From IMG/VR virus record IMGVR_UViG_3300028840_004599: a DNA stretch of 20,000 nucleotides; one strand, given 5' to 3'. Both the position numbers and the translations under genes were made by a program. The DNA comes from an uncultured virus (IMG/VR IMGVR_UViG_3300028840_004599) (taxonomy: Duplodnaviria > Heunggongvirae > Uroviricota > Caudoviricetes). Positions 1,733 through 19,965 of this stretch are shown piece by piece (the first letter of the stretch is position 1; each line of letters opens with the position of its first letter). The notes under the pieces were generated by a model, which was given only the letters and a program-made list of their open reading frames with translations, had not been told where the DNA came from and ran no database searches.

Positions 1733-2650
1733 ATGAGCGACCAACTTTTAAGAGCTGCACTAAAGACGGATACCTTGATTACTTCGGGGACTACTATTGC
1801 CAGTTATGGAAAACTGAATGCTGAGCAGCTTGACAAGTTCATGCAGTGGATCATCGAACAGGAAAACATACTGAAGATGATTGATGTTATTGACATGAAC
1901 GGTCCAACGCTTGACTTGGACTCTTTCGACATTGCCGAACAGAGTTTGAGAAAGGCTACTGAGGGTACGGCGTCCGATGCTGTGGGCATCACAACGGCAA
2001 AGCGATCCCTGAGCACCACAGAGGTTGTCCTGCCATACAAACCCTCGTACAGCTTCGTAGAGGACAACATTGCCAAGCGGGGAGGTGTAGACCAGATCAT
2101 TCGTGGCTTTGCCACGTTGTTCTCCAATGACCTCGCAAACCTCGCCATCAACGGTGACGGGTCTACTGGTAACTTTTTCTCGATTGAGAAGGGATTCATC
2201 CAGTTGATTAAGGATGAGGTTGGAAGTTCCCACATTTACGACCACAACGGAAGCACATCGTACCTGAGCACGGTTTTGCCTAATATCTTGGCTGAGTTAC
2301 CGTCGAAGTTCAAGGCGAACTTTCCCAAGCTGCGTTTTATTGTTTCCTACGCTACATACGAGGCAATTGCCAAAGAAGTAGCTAACCGCAGCACTGCACT
2401 CGGCGACGCTATCCTGCTTGAGGGCAAGCCGTTAAAGTATGGCGGTATCACCATTGAACGCGTGCCATATTGGCCGGACGGAACTCACTTGCTGTGTGAT
2501 CCCAAGAACTTGGCAATTGGCGTTCAAAGAAACATCCTTTTCGAGACTGACAAGGATATCGAAAAGCGATTGCACATCTATGTGATGACGTCCAGGATTG
2601 ATTTTCAGATTAAAAACCTGGATTCCCTGGTCATCTCCTACGATGCATAA
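1733..2650 (+). CDS. Major capsid protein, HK97 fold (XkdG-like)
   Basis: 305 aa with GKLNAEQLDKF, LSTTEVVLP..SYSFVEDNI, NDLANLAINGD, LPSKFK, DPKNLAIGVQRNI..E and MTSRIDF, all typical of XkdG/HK97-family capsids. Strong AGGAGG RBS. Confidence 0.92.
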   Translation: MSDQLLRAALKTDTLITSGTTIASYGKLNAEQLDKFMQWIIEQENILKMIDVIDMNGPTLDLDSFDIAEQSLRKATEGTASDAVGITTAKRSLSTTEVVLPYKPSYSFVEDNIAKRGGVDQIIRGFATLFSNDLANLAINGDGSTGNFFSIEKGFIQLIKDEVGSSHIYDHNGSTSYLSTVLPNILAELPSKFKANFPKLRFIVSYATYEAIAKEVANRSTALGDAILLEGKPLKYGGITIERVPYWPDGTHLLCDPKNLAIGVQRNILFETDKDIEKRLHIYVMTSRIDFQIKNLDSLVISYDA

Positions 2651-2682: not shown

Positions 2683-2976
2683 ATGCCTAAACCCAAACCG
2701 CCCACAGACGTGGTGATCGAGAATCCCCCAAAACCCAAGAAACCCGGTTTCGATGTGACCTTTGTTGGTAGTGGGTCAATGAAAGTAACTTCTGTTACGG
2801 GAAGCGGAAATGTGGATGAGGGGAAGAACTACCACTTCACGCGTGCCGGTGCTGATCCGGCAAAACCCGTGTTCGTTGTTGAGGAAGATATTGGGAAGTT
2901 CGAGAACATCAACGACGTTGTTGATCTCAAAAAAAACCGCCCGTTCGATATCAAGCGTGTAGGGAAGGGGGACTAG
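2683..2976 (+). CDS. Hypothetical protein with Pro/Lys-rich N-terminus (possible capsid accessory)
   Basis: 97-aa ORF with AAGGAGG RBS immediately after the capsid gene. Function inferred from position only. Confidence 0.65.
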   Translation: MPKPKPPTDVVIENPPKPKKPGFDVTFVGSGSMKVTSVTGSGNVDEGKNYHFTRAGADPAKPVFVVEEDIGKFENINDVVDLKKNRPFDIKRVGKGD

Positions 2977-2978
2977 TA

Positions 2979-3647
2979 ATGAGAATGAAACATGTAGCGT
3001 TTCTTATCTCACTCTTTCTCGTGTTTTCCTTTCTGTTCACTTGCGCGTATGCAGAAATGGCGTTTGTGGAAAAGGAGTTCACGGTTTCTTCCGGATCGGC
3101 TAGTGGCAGCGTTACCCTTGAACCCAACTTCATGTTGTATGAGGTGCGATGGAAGACGAACGGTATTGATGCTGGTGACTCGGTAACGTTGTCCCTTGTG
3201 GACAACTTTGCCAATTATACCGTTTGGACAGCTACCGATTCCACGATAGTTGCTGGTATAGGCGAGGTATGTGTTCTTTCCAATATCTGGGATTATACTA
3301 TCACAAATACCAGTACTACCACAACCACATCCGGGAATACGGCAACAAGTTCTAATAGTGGCACTAGCACCGGCACAAATACATCTACAGCTACAATGAC
3401 CGATGTTACATCTGGAACACTCTCAACCATCACATCTACAGTCACCACAACCGATACTGTAACAAATACCGTAAGTGACTCTGTTACCACATCCGGAACT
3501 ACCACGAACGTGGCTGTTGTCGAGAATATCAGCTCCGCATCAACCACGAGGTACTTCGGATGCGGTCCTACTATGTTTACAATCACTTTCTCAAGCACAC
3601 AGGAAGCTGATCGTGTTATCCGGGTGAAGTTGTTAGGCAAGGAATAA
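2979..3647 (+). CDS. Signal-peptide protein, beta-rich, with a 71-aa Thr/Ser-alternating insert
   Basis: N-terminus MRMKHVAFLISLFLVFSFLFTCAYA has basic n-region, hydrophobic core and AxA cleavage site. The insert at 3297-3509 has 33 Thr and 13 Ser in 71 residues. TAATG overlap with the next gene. Confidence 0.75.
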   Translation: MRMKHVAFLISLFLVFSFLFTCAYAEMAFVEKEFTVSSGSASGSVTLEPNFMLYEVRWKTNGIDAGDSVTLSLVDNFANYTVWTATDSTIVAGIGEVCVLSNIWDYTITNTSTTTTTSGNTATSSNSGTSTGTNTSTATMTDVTSGTLSTITSTVTTTDTVTNTVSDSVTTSGTTTNVAVVENISSASTTRYFGCGPTMFTITFSSTQEADRVIRVKLLGKE

Positions 3648-4129
3648 TGAAGATCGAACTAAAACGACTCATTGACGTACTTTTTGTTTTGTTCCTTTTT
3701 GGAGCTTTACTACGACCATCAGTTGCACAGGACGATTATAGGTTGGATAGGAGTGTGCCCGGTTTTGCTGGGTACACTCTCTCCTATCCTGTTTTTGGCG
3801 GGACTTATAATCAGGCATCCTTAACAACTACTACGGTAGCTACCATAGCCAGTGATTTGAGCTCAGCAACCGTACAGTATAATATTACATCCACAGATAC
3901 GCTCACCGTTTCGGAAGTGTGGATTCAAACCTCTGTAGATTCCAGATGGACGTTGGACAATAACACAAACCCAACATCTGTTACTGGTATCCTACTGTCA
4001 GCCGATGATACCTTGAAGCTCCCCGGGAACAGCGCACGATGGTTGCGTATTATAGGGGTAAGCTCTTCTGGTTACATCCGCAAGCAATATTTTGGATGGC
4101 CTACCTCATATTATTACCCTTGGGAGTAG
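3647..4129 (+). CDS. Signal-peptide protein, small beta-sandwich (possible capsid decoration-like fold)
   Basis: N-terminus MKIELKRLIDVLFVLFLFGALLRPSVA|QD is Sec-like. The C-terminal SRWTLDNNTNPTSVTGILLSADDTLKL resembles an 'R.T.DGT.PT...G..L..GD' pattern I associate with small phage structural proteins. Coupled by TAATG overlap. Confidence 0.7.
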   Translation: MKIELKRLIDVLFVLFLFGALLRPSVAQDDYRLDRSVPGFAGYTLSYPVFGGTYNQASLTTTTVATIASDLSSATVQYNITSTDTLTVSEVWIQTSVDSRWTLDNNTNPTSVTGILLSADDTLKLPGNSARWLRIIGVSSSGYIRKQYFGWPTSYYYPWE

Positions 4130-4132
4130 ATT

Positions 4133-4774
4133 ATGTCAGTAGCATATTGCGCTATAGCTGATGTTTCTGCCCTACTCCCAAGTGGAGCCTCTTACACAGA
4201 CGACGAAATACAAACAGTAATAGATTTTGTAAAAGAGCAAATTGACTTATTTATGGAGGAAGCGGACTGGTTTGGTTCTGTTTCCTCCCAAACTATTATA
4301 ATGGACGGGTCTGGCACAAGCAAGCTCATGATTCGTGATGAGGTTCGTCCATTGGTGTCTATTACATCCATCTTAATAGACGAAGTAGAGATCAGTACAG
4401 CATATTTGGAAGAGATGGAATATGACAGCAAACGGCATATCATATACTCTCCCAGCTTGGAATTCTACAAAGGTACTAGGAATATAGATATAACGGGCAC
4501 GTTTGGATATGCCAGTGTGCCCGGTTTGCTAACACACAAGGCAGCAAAGACCTGTGTTAAGATTCTTCGTGCTGGTGGTGTTGGCGATTGGTTGGAGAGC
4601 AATAGTTCCAGCTCCTCTGGTTCCCATGTAAAAAGCGTAAAATTTGATGATGCAACGGTTGATTTTGATTCGACTGAAAACGCAACAGACACAACGCACA
4701 CGACCGGAGATTCTGAACTTGATGATATTTTGTGGAAGTATAAATCACTGTACCCGTTGGGTGGCATAGTATAG
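4133..4774 (+). CDS. Head-tail adaptor/connector protein (HK97 gp6 / SPP1 gp15-like)
   Basis: Starts with AYCAIADV, then helix IQTVIDFVKEQIDLF, beta insert PLVSITSI, NIDITGTFGYASVP, VKSVKFDD and ILWKYK; this is the usual adaptor layout. Synteny supports it. Confidence 0.8.
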   Translation: MSVAYCAIADVSALLPSGASYTDDEIQTVIDFVKEQIDLFMEEADWFGSVSSQTIIMDGSGTSKLMIRDEVRPLVSITSILIDEVEISTAYLEEMEYDSKRHIIYSPSLEFYKGTRNIDITGTFGYASVPGLLTHKAAKTCVKILRAGGVGDWLESNSSSSSGSHVKSVKFDDATVDFDSTENATDTTHTTGDSELDDILWKYKSLYPLGGIV

Positions 4775-6149: not shown

Positions 6150-6962
6150 ATGGGAGCTACGATTCCGGAATTTGGTCACGACACGGAAGCAGAAACAATA
6201 AATATAGGTTACACGCGGGAACCTATAGAACTGCTGGATGGTCTTGGAAAAACGGATTACACGAAGAGCCTTACAACCACGTTTACAAAAACACAACCCG
6301 TATGTGCTGCTATTGGCATTGCATCGAGCACCTCTGAGGCTAATATGATAGCAGCTGCTGCAATTGCAGCTGTCATAAGTGGGGCAACACTTACAGTAGA
6401 GGAGGAAGTAAGCATCCTTCGTGGACCCTCAACAGATTTCCAGGTAGAGGGTGGTTATGCTCCCAGCTCTGAAGACAAGCTCATGTACGTTACCTGTTGT
6501 AAGTGGAAACGCGTGCGTGTTCGTTTGGAGATAAAAGGCAAGGGGCGTATCCCGTCCGAGTTCCTCACAATGGGTGATGATTTTCTGTCAGCTTCGGCAG
6601 CCATCACTATCCAGTCTGGAACAGACGCAACCACAAAAATAGTAACATCAGCTGTTTATGGGGAAACGGGTGTTGATCTCAAAATAACAGATGTACAGCG
6701 TAATGAGGAGAACGAAGATTGGGGTGGTTGGGCTGTGACACTGGAGGGGTGGGTAGACCCAGGAACGTACACTACTTCCCCATTAAAAAGCAGTTTGGAG
6801 TTTTTTGGCGAAGCTGGTGCAGACCTTGATGGTGAGACGGGGTATAAGATCACAATTCAAGAAACTTATTCGGAAGATCAGCATGTCATGAGAACTGAAA
6901 CTGTCGAGGTTTACGATGATGCAGCATCGAGCACAGTATCTGCAATCTCATATCCTGCGTAA
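6150..6962 (+). CDS. Putative major tail (tube) protein, divergent
   Basis: 270 aa, acidic, Thr/Ala/Gly-rich and beta-rich. Very strong TAAGGAGG RBS. Lies between the terminator and chaperone genes. Confidence 0.55.
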   Translation: MGATIPEFGHDTEAETINIGYTREPIELLDGLGKTDYTKSLTTTFTKTQPVCAAIGIASSTSEANMIAAAAIAAVISGATLTVEEEVSILRGPSTDFQVEGGYAPSSEDKLMYVTCCKWKRVRVRLEIKGKGRIPSEFLTMGDDFLSASAAITIQSGTDATTKIVTSAVYGETGVDLKITDVQRNEENEDWGGWAVTLEGWVDPGTYTTSPLKSSLEFFGEAGADLDGETGYKITIQETYSEDQHVMRTETVEVYDDAASSTVSAISYPA

Positions 6963-6976
6963 GGAGATAACATCTC

Positions 6977-7255
6977 GTGGCAGCTCTTGTAGTCGTACAT
7001 GATCTTGGTAAACGACCAAGGAAAACAGTGTCACCACAATGTGATGGTAATGACTTGGTTACGACTCATGGGTATGTGCATAGAAAGGTTGTTGTAATCT
7101 CCTGGGCTGAAACAGCTGAGATAGAATCGAACATTGTGTCGAACGAGACTGGTGGATTTAGTAGGGATGGGGATTACCGTGCATATCCGGCGATTGCAAG
7201 AGAGTTCCCTTTATATAATGTGGAGGCAAATCTGGTAAAATACACGGATACGTAA
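6977..7255 (+). CDS. Hypothetical tail-module protein
   Basis: 92-aa ORF, GTG start with TAAGGAG RBS, tightly packed in the operon. Confidence 0.6.
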   Translation: MAALVVVHDLGKRPRKTVSPQCDGNDLVTTHGYVHRKVVVISWAETAEIESNIVSNETGGFSRDGDYRAYPAIAREFPLYNVEANLVKYTDT

Positions 7256-7265
7256 GGAGGCATAC

Positions 7266-7880
7266 ATGATACGCAATCTTAGAGAAGGAGAACAGATACC
7301 GGAGGAGTTTGCAGACGTTTTGAAGCTGGCTCCTGAAGAGAGGAAGAAGCTCATCATCCTAGGTGATAAACGGATGTGGATTTTCCCGCCGACCAAGGAA
7401 GAGGTCGACAAGATCATAGATGCGTTGAAGAAGTACCTGCTATTTCAGGACAATAACGAAGACGTGGTCGATTCCATACTCAGGGACTTTGTTCCAAGCG
7501 CATTAAAGTCTATCGGAATAAACGAGACAATCCTTGCCAAGGCAACACCCGACCAGATTATTCATGTCGCCTACACCGTATACGACTTTATATTCGGGAT
7601 GGAGGGGCTTGGTGAAGGCATACGAAAAAACGTGAAGAGCCTCTGGGGAACACTTCGGCAGATGCTGTCACTAACCCCGGAGGCAGAAGAAAACATGAAG
7701 ACCTTATCCGATCATTTTTCCCGCACACCGGAAGCAGCGCAGAGGGCTATGTCTGCGAAACCTTCGGATACTCCCCCGCCTTCGTCCGAGGAAGGTATTA
7801 CATTCGGTGCGCGGATACTGGAAATCCCTGTTGTAGATGCAAAGGGAAAGACGGGGGACGACGGTGTGAAAACGCCATAG
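7266..7880 (+). CDS. Tail assembly chaperone (gpG analogue)
   Basis: TAAGGAGG RBS, helical protein, located upstream of the tape measure gene. Contains in-phase slippery heptamers at 7625-7631 and 7844-7850. Confidence 0.7.
   Translation: MIRNLREGEQIPEEFADVLKLAPEERKKLIILGDKRMWIFPPTKEEVDKIIDALKKYLLFQDNNEDVVDSILRDFVPSALKSIGINETILAKATPDQIIHVAYTVYDFIFGMEGLGEGIRKNVKSLWGTLRQMLSLTPEAEENMKTLSDHFSRTPEAAQRAMSAKPSDTPPPSSEEGITFGARILEIPVVDAKGKTGDDGVKTP
7625..7631 (+). other. Programmed -1 ribosomal frameshift site A_AAA_AAC
   Basis: CGA AAA AAC in the chaperone frame fits X_XXY_YYZ. The -1 frame opens 9 nt upstream and runs to 8386. Confidence 0.65.
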
Positions 7881-8386
7881 TTGCGTTAGAGGGACTCACG
7901 TATACAGAGTTCGTGGTTCTATATAGATGTGCCCTATTCAATCACTACAACAAGCTCCGGGACTTCATGCAACAAATAGGTCTTTTGGTTGGGTGGAAGC
8001 CGAAAGGAAAACCGCGTGGCGACTCCTTGGAAAACTTCCCAAATGATGTGGATTATTTTGGTGAGGAACAGATACGAAACCACCTGAAATATTGGAAAAG
8101 GATATTAAGCAAGAATAATAATGTAAAGGACATAGGTAGGATTTGGGATGATCGACGGGCTTCTGCATGTAGGGGTGAGATGGGACAGGCAGCCCGTCGT
8201 TGTTCTATGGACGATAGACTTTGGATGATGTATATAAATTCTGTGAAGGTGGGAACGGAGCCGGATATGGGATTGGTTAAACACTGGTTCTCCATACAAT
8301 ATTACTCGTCCAAGGCAAAAACACATCCGGACAAGGAGGAGAGGGATAAGGCGTTTGCTACGCTTAGAGCCCTTATCAGGAGATAG
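7625..8386 (+). CDS. -1 frame extension of the tail assembly chaperone (gpT portion of a 373-aa G-T fusion); includes track ORF 7913..8386
   Basis: The -1 frame is open from just after TGA 7613-7615 to TAG 8384-8386, checked codon by codon. The upstream part reads ...EGYVCETFGYSPAFV...EGLTYTEFVVLY, resembling gpT-type segments. GTG 7913 has no good RBS. Confidence 0.7.
   Translation, partial: KKREEPLGNTSADAVTNPGGRRKHEDLIRSFFPHTGSSAEGYVCETFGYSPAFVRGRYYIRCADTGNPCCRCKGKDGGRRCENAIVALEGLTYTEFVVLYRCALFNHYNKLRDFMQQIGLLVGWKPKGKPRGDSLENFPNDVDYFGEEQIRNHLKYWKRILSKNNNVKDIGRIWDDRRASACRGEMGQAARRCSMDDRLWMMYINSVKVGTEPDMGLVKHWFSIQYYSSKAKTHPDKEERDKAFATLRALIRR
7844..7850 (+). other. Second candidate -1 frameshift site G_GGA_AAG
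   Basis: AAG GGA AAG in the chaperone frame is the same heptamer and phase as the lambda G-T site, about 30 nt before the chaperone stop. Confidence 0.45.
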
Positions 8387-8388
8387 AT

Positions 8389-10080
8389 ATGAGTACTGAT
8401 GTAAAACGCACTATATTCCAATGGGATTCACAAGGGCAACCCAAAGTTCTATCCGATCTTCTTGGTTTGAAAGCTGCCGTGGACAAGCTCAATGCTGCCA
8501 TTGGGAAACTAAACACAAACATGGGAACACTGGCTAGCAGGAGTCGCGGAATAAAAACAACCGAACCGGGGTGGGCGTATGGTGGTGATCAGAGTCGGCT
8601 AAGCTTGATAGGACAGCCGTATGGGAGAAGGGAGCTCCCATTTGGCAAGGTATTTAACGGCATCGAGTCATTCAGTAGTAAGCTATGGAAAGCAAGCATA
8701 CACATACTTGCAATCACATACCTACTCCGTAGAATCACAATACCCATAAAACGAATCATACGTGCAGGAATAGGTGCTGGTGCTCTTACACTGGAAAAAT
8801 CCGATGCTTGGTTCAGGCAAAAAGTAGCCCTGTCAGAGATGCTTGGAAAAGAGCGTGGCGAACATGCTATAAGATATGGGTGGAGAAAAGCTGCTGTAGA
8901 GATGGGACAGGCTACGGAGTTCATGGATTTGATCCGTACTGTAGCTGCATTAAATACAGAAATACGAGATGCCATGCGTTCCAACACACAGACAGCAGAG
9001 CGCATCTGGAACAAGATGGTTCATACCGTCCAGGCAATGGTAACAGTCTTCCCGGAATATTCCATTGGTCAGGCTACCTCTGCTCTTTCCCGTGCTATAG
9101 CTGGTCAATACATAACAATGGCTCGTACATTCCGCGCTCCAAGAAGGGTAATCGAGTCGGAACTTGGACGTCCTGTTGGAACTGGCATGGCTGCGATAGA
9201 AGACCTTCACAAGTTTTGGTCGCAACGTATATCGCAAAGTGCCATCGAGTCCATCGGTGGATCGTACAGAGAACAAAGCAATAACATACGTCGTCAGCTT
9301 GGGGAGCGTTTTCCCTTTCGCATAGGTGAGATGGGATTCCGGCAACAGGTATCCGGGAGCCTTTTCAACCTGAACACCACAATAAACGAGATGATGAAGG
9401 CTGGCAAGTACGACAGGTTCTTTCGTCAAATATCTGATAAATTCATGGGTGTGTGGAGTGATATTACAGATGCCGTATCGACGCTGGTTATAGACATAGA
9501 CATATCCGAAGATTCCCTGGCTGCTATGATTAACAAGATGGTAGACCAGATGGGGAAAGCTGCGCCAAAATTAATGAAGACCTTGTTGTACTCTGTGGGT
9601 GACGTAGCCAAAGAGCGTGGTGGCAGCTTGGGATTTGTTGCTGACTTATCTGCCATGAGTAATGCTTCAGCTAAAGTAATTAGAGACGCAATACTACATG
9701 ATTATGGTTCTATGAGAACAACGATTCCCCAGCTAGGGGCACTGTTTCAAAGTACCAACGCCCCGCCAGGAACAGCGTTCTCCGAATACATACGCGAGAT
9801 GTACAGGGAGCCTCCTCCAGGATACACGGACAGGTGGATGGGTGATGAGAGCTTAATCCAGAAAATACGTGGCAGTGTAGGGGCTATGGAATCTTACCGT
9901 ATGTTTGGAGAAGAGGGGCTTTCGCAATACGTAGCATCCCAAGGAGGGAAAATACCACAGAGCTCTCCCGAGGAAATAGCAAAATACCTGGCTAGGATAG
10001 CCGAGGCAACAGAGAAGCTGGCACACGGCTCAGAGAGAGATGCAGCATTTGCACACACAATATGGGCAGATACTCCATAA
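8389..10080 (+). CDS. Tail tape measure protein (short, 563 aa)
   Basis: Helical and Ala/Met/Gly-rich. Contains QATSALSRAIAGQYITM and GGSYREQSNNIRRQL, resembling the tape-measure N-terminal domain. Follows the chaperone pair. Confidence 0.75.
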   Translation: MSTDVKRTIFQWDSQGQPKVLSDLLGLKAAVDKLNAAIGKLNTNMGTLASRSRGIKTTEPGWAYGGDQSRLSLIGQPYGRRELPFGKVFNGIESFSSKLWKASIHILAITYLLRRITIPIKRIIRAGIGAGALTLEKSDAWFRQKVALSEMLGKERGEHAIRYGWRKAAVEMGQATEFMDLIRTVAALNTEIRDAMRSNTQTAERIWNKMVHTVQAMVTVFPEYSIGQATSALSRAIAGQYITMARTFRAPRRVIESELGRPVGTGMAAIEDLHKFWSQRISQSAIESIGGSYREQSNNIRRQLGERFPFRIGEMGFRQQVSGSLFNLNTTINEMMKAGKYDRFFRQISDKFMGVWSDITDAVSTLVIDIDISEDSLAAMINKMVDQMGKAAPKLMKTLLYSVGDVAKERGGSLGFVADLSAMSNASAKVIRDAILHDYGSMRTTIPQLGALFQSTNAPPGTAFSEYIREMYREPPPGYTDRWMGDESLIQKIRGSVGAMESYRMFGEEGLSQYVASQGGKIPQSSPEEIAKYLARIAEATEKLAHGSERDAAFAHTIWADTP

Positions 10081-10090
10081 GGAGAAATGA

Positions 10091-12232
10091 GTGACAGACA
10101 TTAACAACATATTTGATATGGGTATTTCAGGCTCTACTGACTTCACATACCAGCACAACGAGAAAGAGCTTGGTCCAAGTATTGTTGTTGGAGGAAACTA
10201 TGCTGCTGGAAGTGTGCCGAATTACGAAAATAACGACATCATAACAATATCCCTACCCTACGGGCAGCGTGTTGTTGGTAGGGTCATAAACCCGCGAACT
10301 ATGGCAGAGCCGGACAAGTACCGTTTCACATTCGAAGTATTATCCGAACAGAGCCTATTCGTGAAGTCCTCCCCGTCGAAAGATGTCCGTTTTATGACAA
10401 TGACATGGGAACAATACGAACGTTGGTTAGACGGTATCGATTTAACCGTTATAGATTATGTTCCAAAGGTGCGTATATCCAATGACCCACACGGCAGGTA
10501 TGGTTGGGATAGCCACTCCATTATAGCTTGGGCTGCTATGCAGATGTCGGCACAGATACAAGGCGTCTGGATTAACACACACAATTACTGGTTAAAGGAT
10601 TTTCAGATATCTTATGGCTCCTCGTATTATTCTGCCATGCTCGGACTTGTTGGCATATTCGACCCGCGTATAGAATTTGATGGGTATAACCTATATATAC
10701 TGGACAGAGCTGTAAATAACGGGGAATTCGGAACAGTAAGTGTGGTTAAATCTGAGTTTATCAGCCAAGAGGAGCCGTGGTCGTCCAAGCCAAAATATGT
10801 GCGGGTTCTCGGGCAAGATAGTGAGTGGCGCGCAACCAAGTACAAGGGCAAAGTTGGTGGGTCTCTTACCTTTATAAACGTCCCCATGTACGATCTTACC
10901 GTCAAAGCTGGTTACTCGCACGGAACACCGGCACTAGAGGTAAAAAAGACAGACACCACGGAACCAGTAAAGAATGAGGAAAGCGAGAACATAATAGTAG
11001 CTGATGGAGACGATACAGAAACCATATACACCAGAACAGTAGAGATTAACTATTATCTTCGGGACGTCTTTGGCAATAAGGCAGAAATATACCTGTCCGA
11101 GAAGTTTGTATATAAGCGCATTGGTGATTACCCACCGTGGCCTTCGTACACAGCAGGTTCCACGTACACAGACCCAACAAATATGGAAACCGATTATCTG
11201 TACGAGTCTAAAATAGTCATACATTCCTACTCAGGCACAGGAACCAACTACGAGAAGCCCCGCCTGACCAGCACACACAACAGCGGACTTAACTATTGGG
11301 GATCGTTAGCAGTCCAACCACACACTGTGATAATAAATGGTCAGTATTGTTGGGAATCTTATGCTTCTGAAACAGGCTACGGTTTATCCGTATCCAAAAA
11401 ACAAACATACTACCCACTCGCCTCGGTAACGTTTAAAGGAACATCGTACACGGATGAATACAAGGATATGAGTACAGACCTCGTTTTGGATGGTGTGCCA
11501 TTTTATGATAGAGAAATAACCTACGCTCCAACGATATCGGACGGAAAAATAGATGATCTTGGCATCTTCTTACAGATAATGCCGAAGTATGCAATACAAG
11601 GAAAAAATTTCCCACTCAACGCATATGAGTTCCCAACAAAGGACACGGGTTTGGACGCGGATATGCCTATATCAGCCTCGAATCTAAAGACAGCCGATTT
11701 AATACGGGATGAGTGTATTGTGTCGATGAAAGAAACCACCCTAACCAACATCGATTTTAGGCATTACACAAAAAGAGTTCGTCACAAGGAACGAAATGTT
11801 AGGGACGGGTTGATACATTTTGTAGAGAATTCGACAAAGCATATATCCTCCCCACCGCCACAAGAACCTTATAGGATGAGAACGATGCAGGCATATGCGG
11901 AGGACGATACCATCCTGACGGAAACGCTCAATAATCCCCCGGCAGAAGTGGGCACGGAAGCAGTAGACTGGTACGATTTGGAAGAGATGCAACGAAAGGT
12001 AAAAAATAGACTACGTAGGGGCGTACTGCGTAGAAAGTACAGGTTTTCCTGCCATGTGCCCTTCGAGATAGGGCAATCTGTAACACTGTCTACATATTCG
12101 GGACCGGGTGGAGCCATAGTACATGAGCCGGGCACATATAAAGATGCTCGTGTTGTTGACATAAAAATAAATAGGGATGCCAAAACAGGAAAGGCATACA
12201 CAGATGTGGTAGTGGAGTGTGACGTAGTATGA
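10091..12232 (+). CDS. Baseplate hub / tail-tip protein (gp27/Tal-like) with large central insertion
   Basis: Follows the tape measure gene. Hub-like segments: SYYSAMLGLVGIFDPRIEFDGYNLYILDR, PKYVRVLG and C-terminal PFEIGQSVTL...ARVVDIKINRD..AYTDVVVE. Confidence 0.55.
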   Translation: MTDINNIFDMGISGSTDFTYQHNEKELGPSIVVGGNYAAGSVPNYENNDIITISLPYGQRVVGRVINPRTMAEPDKYRFTFEVLSEQSLFVKSSPSKDVRFMTMTWEQYERWLDGIDLTVIDYVPKVRISNDPHGRYGWDSHSIIAWAAMQMSAQIQGVWINTHNYWLKDFQISYGSSYYSAMLGLVGIFDPRIEFDGYNLYILDRAVNNGEFGTVSVVKSEFISQEEPWSSKPKYVRVLGQDSEWRATKYKGKVGGSLTFINVPMYDLTVKAGYSHGTPALEVKKTDTTEPVKNEESENIIVADGDDTETIYTRTVEINYYLRDVFGNKAEIYLSEKFVYKRIGDYPPWPSYTAGSTYTDPTNMETDYLYESKIVIHSYSGTGTNYEKPRLTSTHNSGLNYWGSLAVQPHTVIINGQYCWESYASETGYGLSVSKKQTYYPLASVTFKGTSYTDEYKDMSTDLVLDGVPFYDREITYAPTISDGKIDDLGIFLQIMPKYAIQGKNFPLNAYEFPTKDTGLDADMPISASNLKTADLIRDECIVSMKETTLTNIDFRHYTKRVRHKERNVRDGLIHFVENSTKHISSPPPQEPYRMRTMQAYAEDDTILTETLNNPPAEVGTEAVDWYDLEEMQRKVKNRLRRGVLRRKYRFSCHVPFEIGQSVTLSTYSGPGGAIVHEPGTYKDARVVDIKINRDAKTGKAYTDVVVECDVV

Positions 12233-12411
12233 ACGTAGCTGATTACATAATGCAGCGTAAGTCAGCACTTAGACGACGACGCCCCAATCTCGAAACGGAT
12301 GTTGCGGGGGAATGCGTACCTATAGGGGGCAGACCACACAGATCGGAAAGGGTTCTAATAGTGCCAGTAGGACACAGGAGATATGTGATTGGTGCTGTTG
12401 GTGTATCATAA
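12229..12411 (+). CDS. Small hypothetical protein
   Basis: 60 aa, ATGA overlap with the hub gene stop. Confidence 0.55.
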   Translation: MNVADYIMQRKSALRRRRPNLETDVAGECVPIGGRPHRSERVLIVPVGHRRYVIGAVGVS

Positions 12412-12449
12412 TGACACATATTGTACCATTTTAGAGGTAAACATACTAT

Positions 12450-12632
12450 ATGCAATACAAAAAGGAAACAGTAGTAGTAGAGTTATCGAGTCATTGTGTG
12501 CTCACACAGAGTGGCTATGTTGTTGAGTCTTCCGGTAGACCCGGGGATACGATAATTGTGCTCAAAATTGCAGGTTGTGTAAAGGGCACACACTTTACAG
12601 AGGTACTACGCAGACCGGATAGGGGGGAATAG
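12450..12632 (+). CDS. Small hypothetical protein
   Basis: 60 aa, GAGGT RBS, TAGTG overlap with the next ORF. Confidence 0.55.
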   Translation: MQYKKETVVVELSSHCVLTQSGYVVESSGRPGDTIIVLKIAGCVKGTHFTEVLRRPDRGE

Positions 12633-13003
12633 TGTTGTTAGACATACAAGACACGAACACATCGGACGATGAAAAGAGGATACAAACCAAGCGAACATTG
12701 GTTGTTAGTGGGAACAGCTATGAGAAGTCCTTACAGCATGGCACTGTGGCTGTAGAGTTTGTACGCGACTCCAACGGCAAGATACAAGTAGATGAGAACA
12801 ACGCGCCAATTGTCGAGTTGGACACAAACGGAAATCCCAAGCAGGGTCCTATACTATTACGGTGGAACCCAGAAGCGTATACAAAGGATGGGAAGACGTA
12901 TGGAGCCTGGGTATCCGATGATGGGATAGGGGGTAGTGGGGTAGCCGTAAACTACTACAACATAGTTTCCTTGGGATTTTGTATAGATGAGACGGAAGCC
13001 TAA
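12632..13003 (+). CDS. Hypothetical tail-tip-associated protein
   Basis: 123 aa, acidic and beta-rich, GTG start overlapping the upstream stop with a GGGGG RBS. Confidence 0.6.
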   Translation: MLLDIQDTNTSDDEKRIQTKRTLVVSGNSYEKSLQHGTVAVEFVRDSNGKIQVDENNAPIVELDTNGNPKQGPILLRWNPEAYTKDGKTYGAWVSDDGIGGSGVAVNYYNIVSLGFCIDETEA

Positions 13004-13081
13004 ATGAAGAAAGAACACAGAGTCGAAACCCTGTGCCCTCTCTTTTTTGGGGGTCAAATAAGGATATAGCAAGCAAGAATC

Positions 13082-14980
13082 GTGCCAGTTAGTACAACAT
13101 TTGCAGGAAATATACTAAATCAGGACAAGGTTGCTCTACCAAGACTTACTGGTGGCCAGTCCAATTTTGATGGATATCCTGGTATTTTTGGTCTGTTTGT
13201 TCCAGATTCATTTGTATCTGGGTATTGTTCAGCCTGCTGCAAGTGCGCTTCTCATGACGCAGCTATTATGGTTGGTGTTAAAGTAGGTAAGCACGCTCCC
13301 GAGGCTGTATTTTACCCAGAATACAGATATACGCATGAAGATTTGTTATATCTGCATAATGCGCTTTATCTGACATATTATATTTATTATGGGGTTGAGT
13401 ATGACCTTTTATACAACTCAGGGTGGACAGCTGACAATATTTCTCAACAACGAACATACACCATCGTAGACACGTCTTTGTCTGATCCGGTATTGAGCTC
13501 CAACCAGCTTCGGCTTCGGGGTGATAACCCGAGGCATTTGCAAACGGGCGACTCACAGCCTAACCCAGATTGGTATGGGAATGGGGGTGACGAGGGTAAT
13601 CGCCTAATTACGGTAGACTCATTCCACTGCTTGCCAATCGGTTCTATGGGAGTATTTCATTTCCCTTCCGTACTTAGACTAAAGCAGCTTCCATGCTTGA
13701 CAAAGGTTGAGGATGTGACGGCGGTTGGTGATGGCGAATACGAGTTTATAGCTACTCTGTCAAATGCCTGTTCGTATGCAAAGTACCCCGATGATCAGAA
13801 ATACGGTGACGTGTCTGAGTACAGTATAACATTCTATTATTATAAAACGACCCCAATGGATTGGCCTGACATACAGCCATCTCCGAATACTGGGTGGACT
13901 CGCGAGACAGTGAGTTTAGAATCTGGAGATTTGGTAGAGGGCGTCTATACAATATCGGATAGAATATTGTATCCAGGCTTGGTGGATGTTGGTGGTCTAA
14001 CGTTGTTTGGCTGTGTGGTTAGGGACGGACACAATAGGTATCCCGTATCCTTTGGCAGTTTATCAGTATCCACGCAACAATCTGGTGGTTCTTGGACGGT
14101 TCAAATAGACTTTTCTTCCATAACGTCTTTTGATACAATCGAATTAATGTATTTTAGGGAGGCTTCCGGAAGCGACGATGTGTGGTTCAGAACCCGATCA
14201 TCGTGTACAAATTCCAAGCGAGAGTGGTCTGGTTCATACACCCACGATACAAACAATTATTGTGCTGCTTATATAGGCTCTGATGGGAACCCACAATCGT
14301 CTGTTGCCCCATTCAAAGCAAACTTCTGTGACGAGTGTTGGCAACCGGAATGTCCAAATTTTACACTGACACCAGTATTTGATTGTAACGACCCTGCATG
14401 GCTTAATCGTTTTTGGAATAGTGTGGATATGGTCATGTCCCAAGGTATTCCTGGGTGTTCTAATCACAGAAATTTCTCTATAGACGTTGTTTCCATGCCA
14501 TCTTTACGGCAGGTTGCGGGTTTTTACGAGACTGCAACATCTACGGGTGTGGGACACGCAACAAAGTACTTATATCACGATGCTGCTTGCGGACAGCTTG
14601 AAGAGAGTAGCACCAGCTTATATCTTAGGCATGGAGCTCTTTGGGGCAGGGATGGCAATGGTGAAGAATTTGACATGGCAGATATGTTGAATTCCAGAGC
14701 TGGTTTATTTCCGGAAGACGTATCCGGTTATGAGACAAAAAAGGGACAATTGGGTCAAACGTACGATGATGATATAGATGCAACTGGTGCTTTACGCAGA
14801 TTCCCTTTCCACAATACAGGAGAAACGCACCTTTATCAATATACTACCAGTAATCATGGTTACTGTATGACTCAGGGTCGTAGAGAGAATATTCAGCTTA
14901 TTATTTCTGGTTTTAATGAGAATGATTATCTGACGGACGATCAAGAGCTAGACGTGGCAGATATAAGGAGCTTATACTAA
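13082..14980 (+). CDS. Cys-rich putative minor tail protein
   Basis: 632 aa, acidic, Tyr/Gly-rich, about 17 Cys including CSACCKC and FCDECWQPEC clusters. Start codon uncertain because the RBS is weak. Confidence 0.65.
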   Translation: MPVSTTFAGNILNQDKVALPRLTGGQSNFDGYPGIFGLFVPDSFVSGYCSACCKCASHDAAIMVGVKVGKHAPEAVFYPEYRYTHEDLLYLHNALYLTYYIYYGVEYDLLYNSGWTADNISQQRTYTIVDTSLSDPVLSSNQLRLRGDNPRHLQTGDSQPNPDWYGNGGDEGNRLITVDSFHCLPIGSMGVFHFPSVLRLKQLPCLTKVEDVTAVGDGEYEFIATLSNACSYAKYPDDQKYGDVSEYSITFYYYKTTPMDWPDIQPSPNTGWTRETVSLESGDLVEGVYTISDRILYPGLVDVGGLTLFGCVVRDGHNRYPVSFGSLSVSTQQSGGSWTVQIDFSSITSFDTIELMYFREASGSDDVWFRTRSSCTNSKREWSGSYTHDTNNYCAAYIGSDGNPQSSVAPFKANFCDECWQPECPNFTLTPVFDCNDPAWLNRFWNSVDMVMSQGIPGCSNHRNFSIDVVSMPSLRQVAGFYETATSTGVGHATKYLYHDAACGQLEESSTSLYLRHGALWGRDGNGEEFDMADMLNSRAGLFPEDVSGYETKKGQLGQTYDDDIDATGALRRFPFHNTGETHLYQYTTSNHGYCMTQGRRENIQLIISGFNENDYLTDDQELDVADIRSLY

Positions 14981-17900
14981 TGGGTCAAGCAGGATGTTCA
15001 TATGGGTTTGCAACGAAGCTAGTGCCCCCGATAAATATTGATGGGAAACAGTATACACTTTTGGTTCGTTTCCACGATTACCCATCATTGGGTAATGATG
15101 ATGAGATAGTATCTGGTGAGATAGAATCAGTTGTGGATATCGGCGGTGGTTACAAGAAAATTGTGTGTGCGTTGGGCAGATATTATTTTTCTCAAACTCA
15201 TGTGCTCGGTGCTGGCAACTCGTATGAGGAAGTAGTAATGTATTATGCTGGTGGAAACATTTGTATAGCACCTGAACCTGCCATAGGCTCATATTGTTAC
15301 TCGGATGCGAAGGCAACTACGGGACCCAACTCCGCAAATCGGGCACAGGACGGGCACACTCTTATATGGAATAATAAGAAGTTTCTTATAACAAAAGCCT
15401 TAGCATTTCATGAAGCTCCAGATAGTATTAGCTGGCAACTTGGCAATAGATCACAAGGGGAGCGTATAACAGTTGGGTTGGTTGGAGAGGATGATTTTAA
15501 GGGTTGGCAGTTCCCGTTAAGCACTTATAATGCAAATGATGTGGCAATAGATACGACACTTGGTGACATATACGACGATGCAGGAATAACGTGGGAGGAC
15601 ACAGCTGTTGAGTCCGGTTCGTGTTCACGAAAGATTTTTTTGTCATCCCCTGACTATTTCCCATCGGATGCTTGTTTGGACTTTGCAGAGTTTTGGTACG
15701 ACCCAATACACTACGGACTTCGTTTTTGCTCTACCAACGCTCTTCGCGCCGGTGATAGCAAGCCCTGGAGTGATGTAGACCTGCTCAAAGTGACTTGGTA
15801 TGCGCGGGATATACAAGGTGAGATGACGTTAGGCACGACAAAAGTATTTGCGTTCGAGGGTGACGGTGATGGTTTATCCGATTCCGGCGATAGTATAGCG
15901 ACAATATTCGATACCGTAGAGAGACCAGACCCATTTGCTCTCCATAGTCAGCAGATTACTATTGGCAAGTCTATTGGTAGTGAATCCGGCTTGATGTGGC
16001 GAGAAGATTATTCTGCCGATTCTCCATTTATTGCTTGGGTTTATGACGAGGACGGAAATGTTACACTTAAATATAGATTGTTGCAGGGAGGATCAATATC
16101 ATCCAACCCTGTATCGGGTACTCACCCAATCCCGGTAACACTAAAGCTTGAGGAGATATCCGCAGGCACAATCAGGGCATGGTATGATGTGGGGGCTGGT
16201 TTTGTCCTTCATGATACAATCTCGCTTGATCTCACATATTCGTGGTTTGGTGGTGTGTTTGGCTCCTCTGGCTCTTCAATACGGGCATATTTCAACGCAG
16301 ATACCGATGTTGAGGTTCTGCCCGTAGGCACAAATTCTGATTCTGGTGTTTTGTCATATCGTCTTGATAATGAGGTGTATACGCCATATGCCACAAAATG
16401 GTATTGGGAGCACGATAAGCCGTTTACAGGGGATATAGAAGAGATACGCAACGTATCAGCAGATGTGGATATGACATTGGTTGTTACGGGAACAGACCTA
16501 CAACGGGATACGTACATGATATCCGGGAGCACACTAATATTTAGTCAAGAAGCATTCGGTGATAGTGTAACAGCAACATATGATAGTGATGAATCTTTGT
16601 CTGCCCCGGGAAGATGCCCAGGCGGACCAAAGAACTTTTCAAATGACGATGGTGTGGTTGAGCACAATATAGGTCAATATCGGGATTGTCTATACGTTTA
16701 TGATCCAAATGGGGAGCTTACGGCAATAGGCGGTGAGGACTTTTCTGTGATAACCAGTTCGGGGTTTGATCCTAGGACAACATTTTCATTGTATTATGAC
16801 GAGGAAAACAACGCAAGTACGGATTTTACACAGATACCGGATGGGTCTCTTATAAAAAATGCCTTGTCACGCTATGTATTGGTTGAGGATGTTTGGGTGG
16901 AAAGCAACATATTTGCCAATAAACGATATTGTTTTGAAGGTGTTGGTTCAAGGTTTGTACGATTTAATGGTGCGTCCCCACGTTACCTTAATGAGGCTCG
17001 GGACTGCATACAGACATTAAATACTTGTCGTGTGTCTATAACACAGGGAGATGGTGCTCATATTTGCGGGGAAGGACAGATGTACCCGGTTCCCACTACA
17101 CGTTTTTGTGATGAGGAGGGCAACAATGTATGGGGAGGGTGGACTGTGGGCGTTACCGGTGCGCATGTTGATAGAGAAAAAGCGAATGCGTGGTTTCAAA
17201 AACGGTCTGGAACCCGGTGGTTTCAGGCTTTTTCTTATTTCGGTAACAGGATAGCGACACCAGGAATCGTCCTCCCGTATGGGTGGATGGAGATTGATGG
17301 AGTTCCTGAACAGGGCGATTTACATTACAATCTGGGTGGTATATGCCAAACGTATAAGGAGTATTATACGCAGTGCCCAGGGTTGGCTTTGCAGGGGATG
17401 TGTTCCGGTGGTGCGTTAAACCCTTCCGTGGGGTGGTGTTCTGACGGTTATTGCGGCGACCCACTTACACCCTCCGAATGGTATGAGGGTGATCGCGGTA
17501 TCACCAATGCCATGGCGACATTTTTCGCGTGGGCTTCCACAGGGGGGCAAGATTTTTGTGGGTGCAATTACTACGAGAGTTGGGCGGTGGGACATGAGGA
17601 AATATCTCCAGAGTTTAATTTTACGCCTACGTATTTCCAGCCGGGAAATCGGTTGAAGAGAATGCTGGATAACACCACAATAAATTGGGCGAAGATGGAA
17701 TTTGAGCTGAGTGGGGCTTGGCAACGGGTGAGAAACAAGGAATGGGATGCTACTGTTGTTGTGAACGATATTGATGGTATTGGGGAAAACTTCTCGTTCA
17801 GCCTCATGAAAATGAAGAAGGATTCGAGGAATTATGATCCTCCATGCCCCACTGATCCAAAGCCCCCGTATCAGAGTGAATTTGCCCTATTAGGTCAAGG

Positions 17901-18246
17901 TGGGGTAATAGGAGGAGCGATTAATCAGCAGGAGATAAGTGGTGTTATCGATTGTACAGGGATGATTCAGGCGTTGATTGACGATAAAGATTCCCCGTAC
18001 GGATATTATTTTTTATTCCCTAGTCAGGGAACAAGCTTGGTTCTGGGGGCTGATCAGTCTACGTTCTTGCGAGGTTTGCTGCCGGACAGCTACGGAGCTG
18101 CAAGCTCAACAGGATTATACTTTACAAACATGGTCATGCAGTATTGGGATACACTGAGTGTGAGCAACATCATTGTGAATTTTACACTGCCTAGTGGTGA
18201 GGAGAAAACAATAAGAGTGCCATATATAGTAAATGCTATAGAATAA
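14980..18246 (+). CDS. Large Cys-rich putative tail / receptor-binding protein with an internal ConA-like (DUF1349-like) module
   Basis: 1088 aa, about 23 Cys, TAATG coupling with AAGGAG RBS. Segment FEGDGDGL..DS...GLMWRE..SADS...PVTLKLE...IRAWY...FGGVF is lectin-like. Confidence 0.65.
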   Translation: MGQAGCSYGFATKLVPPINIDGKQYTLLVRFHDYPSLGNDDEIVSGEIESVVDIGGGYKKIVCALGRYYFSQTHVLGAGNSYEEVVMYYAGGNICIAPEPAIGSYCYSDAKATTGPNSANRAQDGHTLIWNNKKFLITKALAFHEAPDSISWQLGNRSQGERITVGLVGEDDFKGWQFPLSTYNANDVAIDTTLGDIYDDAGITWEDTAVESGSCSRKIFLSSPDYFPSDACLDFAEFWYDPIHYGLRFCSTNALRAGDSKPWSDVDLLKVTWYARDIQGEMTLGTTKVFAFEGDGDGLSDSGDSIATIFDTVERPDPFALHSQQITIGKSIGSESGLMWREDYSADSPFIAWVYDEDGNVTLKYRLLQGGSISSNPVSGTHPIPVTLKLEEISAGTIRAWYDVGAGFVLHDTISLDLTYSWFGGVFGSSGSSIRAYFNADTDVEVLPVGTNSDSGVLSYRLDNEVYTPYATKWYWEHDKPFTGDIEEIRNVSADVDMTLVVTGTDLQRDTYMISGSTLIFSQEAFGDSVTATYDSDESLSAPGRCPGGPKNFSNDDGVVEHNIGQYRDCLYVYDPNGELTAIGGEDFSVITSSGFDPRTTFSLYYDEENNASTDFTQIPDGSLIKNALSRYVLVEDVWVESNIFANKRYCFEGVGSRFVRFNGASPRYLNEARDCIQTLNTCRVSITQGDGAHICGEGQMYPVPTTRFCDEEGNNVWGGWTVGVTGAHVDREKANAWFQKRSGTRWFQAFSYFGNRIATPGIVLPYGWMEIDGVPEQGDLHYNLGGICQTYKEYYTQCPGLALQGMCSGGALNPSVGWCSDGYCGDPLTPSEWYEGDRGITNAMATFFAWASTGGQDFCGCNYYESWAVGHEEISPEFNFTPTYFQPGNRLKRMLDNTTINWAKMEFELSGAWQRVRNKEWDATVVVNDIDGIGENFSFSLMKMKKDSRNYDPPCPTDPKPPYQSEFALLGQGGVIGGAINQQEISGVIDCTGMIQALIDDKDSPYGYYFLFPSQGTSLVLGADQSTFLRGLLPDSYGAASSTGLYFTNMVMQYWDTLSVSNIIVNFTLPSGEEKTIRVPYIVNAIE

Positions 18247-18248
18247 AG

Positions 18249-18296
18249 ATGCGATTTTTATGTAAAAATGACACAAAAGTGGCATAAAAATTGCGT
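18249..18296 (+). promoter_or_regulatory. Intergenic inverted repeat / RNA hairpin
   Basis: ATGCGATTTTTATGT (18249-18263) pairs with GCATAAAAATTGCGT (18282-18296): 15 bp with three G:U pairs and an 18-nt loop. Confidence 0.5.
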
Positions 18297-18348
18297 GTTG
18301 TTGTAGGTATGTACATCATGGTGGCGTTCTTACGAATTACCTGATATT

Positions 18349-18573
18349 TTGGTGGTGGTTATGGGTATGAATAATCTTGTCCAGTATAAAGTCAAAAAAC
18401 AGAAGGTTTTAGAAGCTCTTCTTGCAAATATTACTCTTCCCGGCGATGCCAGGCTCGTGGGGATGTGGTATGATGTTCGCAATAAGGGAGCAGAGACACT
18501 AAATATATTAATTCAGTCAAAGGAGTTCAAACCTGTGGATTTTGAGGATATACCAGGGATCGAGGTAGTATGA
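18349..18573 (+). CDS. Small hypothetical protein (true start possibly ATG 18361 or 18367)
   Basis: 74-aa ORF whose stop overlaps the next start (ATGA). GGTGG lies upstream of the internal ATGs. Confidence 0.55.
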   Translation: MVVVMGMNNLVQYKVKKQKVLEALLANITLPGDARLVGMWYDVRNKGAETLNILIQSKEFKPVDFEDIPGIEVV

Positions 18574-19214
18574 GTCGAGCTGATGGAGCATACTTCAATA
18601 TATACTATCTTCCGGATGTAGGGTCGCCCGATTACAATGTCCCATATCGCACAATAGATCATGGGCTGTACGAGAGGGGCACAAACAGCGAGATCAAACT
18701 ACGTTTGTACTATGGGCGTGGTTTGTCTGCTTCCCCGTGGTTACAGCCAATATTTCGTGTACGTTTGGGGGTTGGAGAAACTGGTGGTGGTGCATGGAGG
18801 CACGGTACGGAGGTCGTGTCTCAAGGTTTTCACTACGTTCGTTTTGTGGGTGATCCTGCCTATACCCAATTAGATACCACAACAACGTTCGATTTGGGAG
18901 ATTTTACAGTTAATTCATATAAGGATTTGCAATTTAAATTTGCTATTCCTGATCCATATCCAATAGACGAGACTGGTAATATTCGTCATGGGGTAATGCA
19001 TTGGAGGCTTGTGTTCTCGGGCGGTACTATGATGTACGATCAGTCCAAAGCAGCCTTATTTGGCAACTTTACTTATGGAACACGGGTGTTCTTGCCCCGA
19101 GCTGAGAGACCGATATCCACAATTGGTGACAGTGTTACCTGGCTTCTGTGTAGAGCCAACGTGGTGACTGCCTCGGAGGGGACGATCCTATCCCAGGTTA
19201 TTTCAATATTGTAA
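18570..19214 (+). CDS. Hypothetical structural protein (beta-sandwich/Ig-like candidate)
   Basis: 214 aa, aromatic and beta-rich (FDLGDFTVNSYKDLQFKFAIP), GAGGT RBS. Confidence 0.6.
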   Translation: MSRADGAYFNIYYLPDVGSPDYNVPYRTIDHGLYERGTNSEIKLRLYYGRGLSASPWLQPIFRVRLGVGETGGGAWRHGTEVVSQGFHYVRFVGDPAYTQLDTTTTFDLGDFTVNSYKDLQFKFAIPDPYPIDETGNIRHGVMHWRLVFSGGTMMYDQSKAALFGNFTYGTRVFLPRAERPISTIGDSVTWLLCRANVVTASEGTILSQVISIL

Positions 19215-19227
19215 TGGGGGAAATATA

Positions 19228-19965
19228 ATGCGTGAAGAGGGAAAGTCGGTAAAACACCACAATGAACGTCGTGTACTAAATACAATATCTGGGGAATCTA
19301 TAACTGTTCCCGGGGCTGGTGGTCCGTGGGGGGATTATACTGTCAAGTTGGCAGAGACTCCACACGAAAGCTACGATGTAATAGTTGCTGGCGGGTTTAC
19401 AGAAACGGACACCTTGCCTGTAAGCGCAAATGAGTTTTATGTATACTACGAACAGGGTTTATTGGTATTTAACTCAGCTGATGCAGCTACAAATACAACA
19501 GTATCCTACAAGGGGCGTGGAACGAGTCCCGATGCCATAGATGCCAATGCGGTGCAAACACTTCTTTGTGTGCCTGTGGGTTGGGTAGGAGAACCGGTAG
19601 TAACGAGTGACGGCGATTATATGATAACTGTGCCACTGGCATCCACGGAGTCCGCGAGTGGTTTTGGCACGGCAGACCTATCTCAATTGGAAGCACAGGG
19701 TTTTTCAGTATTTTGTCAATCTCCGGATTTTGCATCAGCTGACACAACGTTTGTTCTATCCAACGCAAAAAAAGCCGGAGGTGGTGATACGCTTACATGT
19801 ACCCTGACACACACAGGAGCAGAGACAGATAGGAGGGTGTCTGCTCAAGGAAGCGTGGTATTCGATCTCACATCGGATGCCGTATATATATATTGTACTG
19901 CTGCCACATCCCCATGTCATGCCAATTTCACATTCTTTGTCTGGTTTAGGAGGGTTGCTCCGTGA
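19228..19965 (+). CDS. Putative tail fiber / appendage protein
   Basis: N-terminal module ESITVP...YTVKLAETP...EFYVYYEQGLLVFNSAD...VSYKGRG, a short helix DAIDANAVQT, then a beta-rich head. This layout resembles phage fiber-type proteins. GGGGG RBS. Confidence 0.55.
   Translation: MREEGKSVKHHNERRVLNTISGESITVPGAGGPWGDYTVKLAETPHESYDVIVAGGFTETDTLPVSANEFYVYYEQGLLVFNSADAATNTTVSYKGRGTSPDAIDANAVQTLLCVPVGWVGEPVVTSDGDYMITVPLASTESASGFGTADLSQLEAQGFSVFCQSPDFASADTTFVLSNAKKAGGGDTLTCTLTHTGAETDRRVSAQGSVVFDLTSDAVYIYCTAATSPCHANFTFFVWFRRVAP

Follow-up and report, generated by a model that had tools for sequence, protein, structure and literature searches.

The stretch of DNA analysed here (the window; 20,000 nt) is the last 20 kb of the uncultured tailed-phage record IMGVR_UViG_3300028840_004599. 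It carries two adjacent small genes, named gene 1 and gene 2, which lie in the head region of the late operon and encode proteins with predicted Sec-type signal peptides (leaders). The record has 66,191 nt, and a 144-nt terminal repeat indicates a circle of 66,047 nt. The genome codes for terminase, portal, a family A DNA polymerase, helicase and integrase, and the window for an XkdF-like protease, an XkdG-like major capsid protein, a 97-amino-acid (aa) protein, the two leader-bearing proteins and a head-tail adaptor (Table 1); head-closure matches in the window were weak only. An earlier note on this DNA, written from the letters alone, had described two TAATG-coupled genes between the capsid and adaptor genes, with leaders of 25 aa ending in AYA and 27 aa ending in SVA. 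Both open reading frames (ORFs) are present and the pair does lie between these genes, but the leaderless 97-aa gene intervenes directly after the capsid gene. The TAATG stop/start overlap is found only at the junction of genes 1 and 2; gene 1 starts 2 nt past the TAG of the 97-aa gene and the adaptor gene 3 nt past gene 2.

Table 1 Features of the gene pair and of its neighbours in the window
Feature	Position	Strand	Details
Gene 1 (P0001), 222 aa	2979..3647	+	Leader; N part rich in beta structure; insert rich in Thr/Ser; two beta-type segments at the C terminus
Predicted Sec/SPI signal peptide of gene 1, 25 aa, ending AYA	2979..3053	+	Leader rule
Strong Shine-Dalgarno-like site before Met1 of gene 1	2964..2972	+	Duplex -10.8 kcal/mol, spacing 6
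Thr/Ser-rich low-complexity insert of gene 1, residues 107-180	3297..3518	+	33 Thr and 13 Ser of 74 residues (62%)
Gene 2 (P0002), 160 aa	3647..4129	+	Leader followed by a short N-terminal arm and by the beta-rich domain that defines the unnamed RYxxDGTxPT phage family
Predicted Sec/SPI signal peptide of gene 2, 27 aa, ending SVA	3647..3727	+	Leader rule; relatives conserved from directly behind it
Family domain of gene 2, residues 60-149	3824..4093	+	HMM 26.7 bits; HHalign P 97.4%
Major capsid protein, XkdG-like, 305 aa, no leader	1733..2650	+	phrog_1623, E 2.6e-62
97-aa gene, no leader	2683..2976	+	By position the single small slot gene of Vibrio phage HC and Bacillus phage B83
Head-tail adaptor, 213 aa, no leader	4133..4774	+	phrog_442, E 1.1e-8

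The leaders were assessed with a rule written for the present analysis, which asks for a positive n-region, ten uncharged hydrophobic residues and small residues at -3 and -1. Both genes pass this rule and show the n/h/c layout of signal peptidase I (SPI) substrates with no later transmembrane segment, and the low scores that the earlier note had named as a refutation were not obtained. Among the 93 ORFs of at least 60 aa in the genome, the rule passes five: genes 1 and 2, a 790-aa gene described below, a lipoprotein-like ORF and an antisense ORF unlikely to be a real gene. Three of the 28 late-operon ORFs pass (genes 1 and 2 and the 790-aa gene), and the core head, neck and tail-tube genes are not among them. 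False positives amounted to 16, 28 and 8 per 2000 whole-protein shuffles (about 0.4-1.4%) and to 6 of 1275 internal windows. The leaders of genes 1 and 2 are very probably real. Cys22 in the leader of gene 1 lies outside a canonical lipobox. The lipoprotein-like ORF (91 aa; G000:C1:9795-10070 = L010:3795-4070) is located outside the late operon and has no family match.

The strong Shine-Dalgarno-like site of gene 1 belongs to Met1, whereas Met27, directly past the predicted cleavage site, has no Shine-Dalgarno match. The site at Met1 of gene 2 is weak (-4.5, stop-coupled) and no better than those at TTG33 and GTG37 (-4.0 and -4.3). Since these strengths leave gene 2 undecided, its start at Met1 rests on its relatives; a start upstream of the hydrophobic segment, as the earlier note had assumed, is thus backed for gene 1 by its own ribosome-binding site and is favoured for gene 2 by related proteins. 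A query with the mature part of gene 2 against 1.84 billion representatives retrieved three relatives with full-length identities of 35-49%. Retention of the leader in homologues was a test that the earlier note had named, and all three relatives carry one, each of different sequence. The leaders of the four proteins display the full n/h/c layout and small -3/-1 residues with almost no common sequence, and the invariant columns, apart from Met1 and one Lys, begin past the cleavage site, at an Asp-Tyr pair. The relatives sit on short contigs of 973-1743 nt.

Word-index searches with gene 2 gave nothing beyond itself or the same three relatives, locus searches found this phage only, and a match in the genome collection (L005) was a 15-residue chance match. 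Gene 2 has no Pfam, PHROGs or NCBIfam family, and its relatives likewise have no Pfam match. AlphaFold reached a predicted local distance difference test (pLDDT) value of 32 from the single sequence and 46.5 from four sequences, with beta strands in the mature core only. With the low-confidence four-sequence model, the Foldseek and VIA lists gave only generic beta-sandwiches; the base protein of the gene transfer agent RcGTA and PBSX XepA are absent from these lists, which excludes neither.

Gene 2 is a member of a large, unnamed family of beta-rich phage proteins of about 95 aa, which we designate by the motif RYxxDGTxPT. A DNA motif taken from the four-protein alignment occurred in eight viral stretches, one of them this phage, and six of the seven others encode proteins of 91-144 aa that match the hidden Markov model (HMM) of that alignment. 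A second DNA motif, one residue shorter, was present in at least 120 viral stretches, and the family counts come from the matches listed; an ORF with the protein motif was found at 119 of 127 loci. The HMM of 98 non-redundant members, collected independently with the second motif, scored gene 2 at 26.7 bits vs 6.3 bits for the best of 1000 shuffles. When the motif was masked, the four gene 2-type proteins dropped to weak scores of 4.6-10.1 bits. Profile-to-profile comparison by HHalign gave P 97.4% and E 8.9e-12 over 63 columns. The Pfam families CHB_HEX_C_1 and Fn3_assoc (matching 53 and 26 of the 98 members) were rejected as the identity of the family, their matches covering only the short DGTxP motif where shown. 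Past this short shared motif the family has no Pfam domain and no solved structure. No cultured carrier was found: among 50,697 phage records, two members each had one match, to an uncultured phage.

Leaders were assigned to 17 of the 103 non-redundant members; 19 had passed the rule, two of which were discarded by eye, and one chance-like match of 697 aa had been dropped beforehand. The remaining 86 have no leader, which implies that in most phages the domain acts from within the cytoplasm. Trees of the family, which are poorly resolved, need 10-11 changes of the leader label; repeated gain of leaders was not established by them, and a single leader-bearing clade was not rejected (approximately unbiased test, p 0.214). 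In a context scan (threshold E 1e-8), 53 of 74 flanked loci had upstream ORFs of 250-470 aa (104 proteins). A major capsid gene was found at most 5 kb upstream at 19 of these 53 loci, and a terminase, protease, scaffold, head-morphogenesis or distal-tail gene at 10 further ones, so that 29 had a virion gene in all; four had non-virion matches only and 20 had none. All nine leader-bearing loci in the scan had a virion gene, six of them a capsid gene. Leader-bearing and leaderless members alike occur behind major capsid genes, and the capsid family phrog_3437 is common to two loci with a leader (L013, L031) and one without (L017). Judged from these sequences, gene 2 is very probably an exported version of a domain mostly made in the cytoplasm within virion modules.

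The leaders come as cassettes. At one family locus (L062:3980-5159), three consecutive small leader-bearing genes lie directly 3' of a major capsid gene; two are paralogous and one belongs to the RYxxDGTxPT family. A leader-bearing neighbour within two genes was found at 7 of 14 leader-bearing loci vs 10 of 60 others (Fisher p 0.013); the test run first, with a distance of up to four genes and one false positive included, gave 8 of 15 vs 16 of 59 loci (p 0.07), and the p-values of all the neighbour tests are inflated by kinship among loci. The pattern recurs in a second unnamed family of about 125 aa (motif YDxxxxDxxGxDxxxG; L141-L260, viral contigs), gathered with another motif as a candidate family for gene 1. 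Here 24 of 109 members have leaders, and a leader-bearing neighbour within two genes was found at 11 of 16 vs 8 of 60 loci (p 3e-5). The second family has no solved structure; two of its members (L144, L197) contain long Ser/Ala/Pro-rich inserts.

This second family was rejected as that of gene 1, which gave no HMM match above shuffles and an HHalign P below 1%, equalled by 15 and 8 of 150 shuffles. Gene 1 has no Pfam, PHROGs or NCBIfam family, its membership in the RYxxDGTxPT family was not supported by profiles, and it matched no neighbour cluster at the loci of that family. No relatives were found by word-index search, tblastn of the phage collection or locus and neighbour-cluster searches, the sensitive representative search having been applied to gene 2. 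The nearest Atlas clusters are viral hypothetical proteins of 145-152 aa (score 0.86), to be read as a lead only. The only cysteines of the mature protein, Cys98 and Cys195, bracket the Thr/Ser-rich insert and may form a disulfide, a bond suited to formation after export. An excess of N-glycosylation sequons in gene 1 was rejected, composition accounting for them (4 vs 4.07 expected), and the Bacteroidota O-glycosylation motif was not enriched (4 vs 1.56, p 0.066). The sequons of gene 2 (2 vs 1.33) and of the 790-aa protein (10 vs 8.5) were also close to the numbers expected from composition.

The 790-aa gene (G000:C1:249-2621; L002) prolongs the late operon over the origin, just beyond the end of the window. 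Its product has a classical signal peptide and a strong ribosome-binding site. From its position, we tentatively take it to be a pectinesterase-type beta-helix and hence a tailspike; its match to the YbhC family (NF007822) is weak (E 0.00085) and far under the cut-off. Searches for relatives with which to check its leader found none, and none full-length, and no other tailspike was recognised among the scanned ORFs of the genome.

The consensus scan detected no promoter-like site on the + strand between positions 400 and 6300 and no terminator-like site on the + strand around the gene pair. The GC content at third codon positions (GC3; 0.47 in gene 1 and 0.43 in gene 2) and overall is like that of the neighbours. 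The pair thus has neither the own promoter and terminator nor the atypical composition of a moron, in agreement with the earlier note, which had considered it not to be a typical one. In the tail region (window 6150-19965, about 13 ORFs) most ORFs have no PHROG or Pfam match; a 563-aa ORF is tape-measure-like by position, and two Cys-rich proteins without leader or family match are encoded at 13082-14980 (17 of 632 residues) and 14980-18246 (23 of 1088). Of 78 genome ORFs searched against PHROGs and, for the most part, Pfam, none was recognised as an endolysin. The ORF at G000:C1:2945-3229, predicted to have two membrane helices, may encode a holin. The family A DNA polymerase carries an N-terminal uracil-DNA glycosylase domain (G000:C1:38034-40754 = L011:13034-15754).

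The capsid protein is about 25-34% identical to annotated capsid proteins of 229 phage records (tblastn). Vibrio phage HC and Bacillus phage B83 share this capsid family, and each has one small leaderless gene in the slot between capsid and adaptor genes. The 97-aa gene corresponds to it by position and has no family match in Pfam, PHROGs or NCBIfam. Streptomyces phage Enygma (PP358745, genes 50-53), with the same XkdG-type capsid family, has an accessory cassette of four small genes in the same slot, one collagen-like and one annotated as 'tail fiber'. None of the four has a leader, unlike genes 1 and 2, which they do not match in sequence (tblastn). The contents of the slot in these three of the 229 records indicate that the gene pair is inserted at a position that serves for head accessories.

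The closest parallel for the leaders was found in Cellulophaga phage phi10:1 (KC821618). The leader rule passes each of its proteins gp091-094, annotated as 'structural protein' from experimental tandem mass spectrometry (MS/MS), and also gp095 (pectate lyase), but none of nine other virion-region genes tested. As in the present phage, some late-operon proteins bear Sec-type leaders and the core head and tail genes have none. Unlike genes 1 and 2, gp091-094 are encoded in the tail/fibre region, and they share no sequence match with the pair (tblastn of the phage collection). The record makes no comment on their leaders. Since gp091-094 combine these leaders with the MS/MS annotation, leader-encoding proteins can reach virion preparations.

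The head spike of RcGTA also consists of a pair of small beta-rich accessory proteins. According to PMC7296036, the base Rcc01079 is a pentameric jelly roll at the capsid vertices (PDB 6tb9), which attaches to the capsid through its own N-terminus and carries the head fibre Rcc01080. The base domain is similar in size to the gene 2 domain (84 vs about 95 aa). Its family, collected from RcapNL gp29, which matches PDB 6tb9 (62 loci, 56 non-redundant sequences), differs in that none of the 56 members has a leader, and its HHalign comparisons with the gene 2 alignments and the RYxxDGTxPT family remained at P 0.8% or less, within column shuffles. By language-model features the nearest named clusters to gene 2 are PBSX XepA (PF27453) and DUF6385 (score 0.86), which is under the Atlas bar of 0.9 and a lead only; XepA is assigned to 23% and DUF6385 to 56% of the cluster members, and Pfam matched neither of them to gene 2, to the three related proteins or to the 98 members of the family.

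The earlier note had proposed three roles for the pair: decoration of virions after lysis, modification of the host envelope and tethering of assembly to the membrane. Decoration gains most from the present results and is favoured because the gene 2 family is mostly leaderless and located in head modules. On balance, we lean towards the view that the products of genes 1 and 2 are accessories of the outer virion, which are exported, fold past the inner membrane and attach to particles at lysis. The late-operon products would enter the host Sec pathway, the leader would be cleaved and the protein would fold beyond the inner membrane; export and cleavage are the part of this proposal that we infer strongly. 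Once the membrane breaks at lysis, the proteins would bind finished heads as outer particle accessories. The virion-surface role, drawn for the RYxxDGTxPT family from gene context, is moderately indicated, and late attachment at lysis is the weakest link. The tailspike-like protein would likely take the same route. Speculatively, the gain may be chemistry outside the cytoplasm, such as a disulfide around the Thr/Ser-rich insert of gene 1 or host glycosylation, or else adhesive parts may be kept away from assembling particles.

Host Sec export is also used by other phage proteins, among them moron products, periplasmic and lipoprotein exclusion factors and signal-peptide endolysins. The products of genes 1 and 2 might be exported and never join the particle, their former virion-accessory domains having been turned, late in infection, to a role in the periplasm or on the cell surface, such as receptor masking, delayed re-adsorption or lysis control, or to one as soluble decoys or lectins set free at lysis. 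Sec export parts proteins from the cytoplasmic capsid, as is established biology; the insert of gene 1 resembles the linkers of cell-surface proteins, and the phage integrase makes lysogen-type envelope functions possible. However, the pair differs from exclusion and lysis genes in having no own promoter or terminator, compositional contrast or match to an enzyme or exclusion family, and the gene 2 domain is otherwise leaderless in head modules. Moreover, a leader is also present in the only tailspike-like protein recognised, and the leader-bearing proteins of phi10:1 are annotated from virion MS/MS. We therefore regard this explanation as rather unlikely, though a serious one.

It is improbable that the hydrophobic N-termini are uncleaved anchors, by which head assembly would be fastened to the inner membrane, or docking peptides. 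Residues 2-10 of the RcGTA head fibre, an N-terminal Ile/Leu repeat, are such a hydrophobic docking peptide that plugs into the pentameric base (PMC7296036), and leader cleavage in the present proteins is a prediction. A docking peptide should, however, be conserved, and the leaders of the four gene 2-type proteins agree in layout but not in sequence; moreover, in the orientation expected from Sec export, the mature domain of an uncleaved protein would still lie on the far side of the membrane from the cytoplasm. A leaderless isoform from an internal start, acting as the working cytoplasmic virion protein with a dispensable leader, finds possible starts in the in-frame ATG at codon 27 of gene 1 and in TTG33 or GTG37 of gene 2, but it is very doubtful, given the ribosome-binding sites of gene 1, the position of the conserved Asp-Tyr pair upstream of both gene 2 codons and the persistence of leaders in such divergent relatives.

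No account of Sec export of tailed-phage virion parts was found in the literature searched, most subscription papers lying outside the search. In their available parts, PMC5026251, on RcGTA loci, mentions signal peptides only in its methods, PMC5723332 counts signal peptides in two Bacteroides phages without assigning them to proteins, and PMC13288928 contains nothing relevant. Beyond the present phage, we give an even chance to the view that particle completion in many uncultured tailed phages draws on two compartments, a cytoplasmic head, neck and tail and Sec-exported head accessories and tailspike being joined at lysis. Cytoplasmic and exported versions of one accessory domain would then occur in the same slot, and a phage could change from one route to the other by the gain of leaders across an entire cassette.

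The assembly of tailed-phage particles is regarded as entirely cytoplasmic. Should accessory and host-recognition parts indeed be exported and added at lysis, this would be an assembly step that textbooks lack. Disulfide formation or host glycosylation would become possible for virion proteins, and the signal-peptide genes of phages would often have been misfiled as morons. In the RYxxDGTxPT family, the same domain occurs with and without a leader in a single slot, which offers a natural control pair for testing this, and phi10:1 offers a cultured system.
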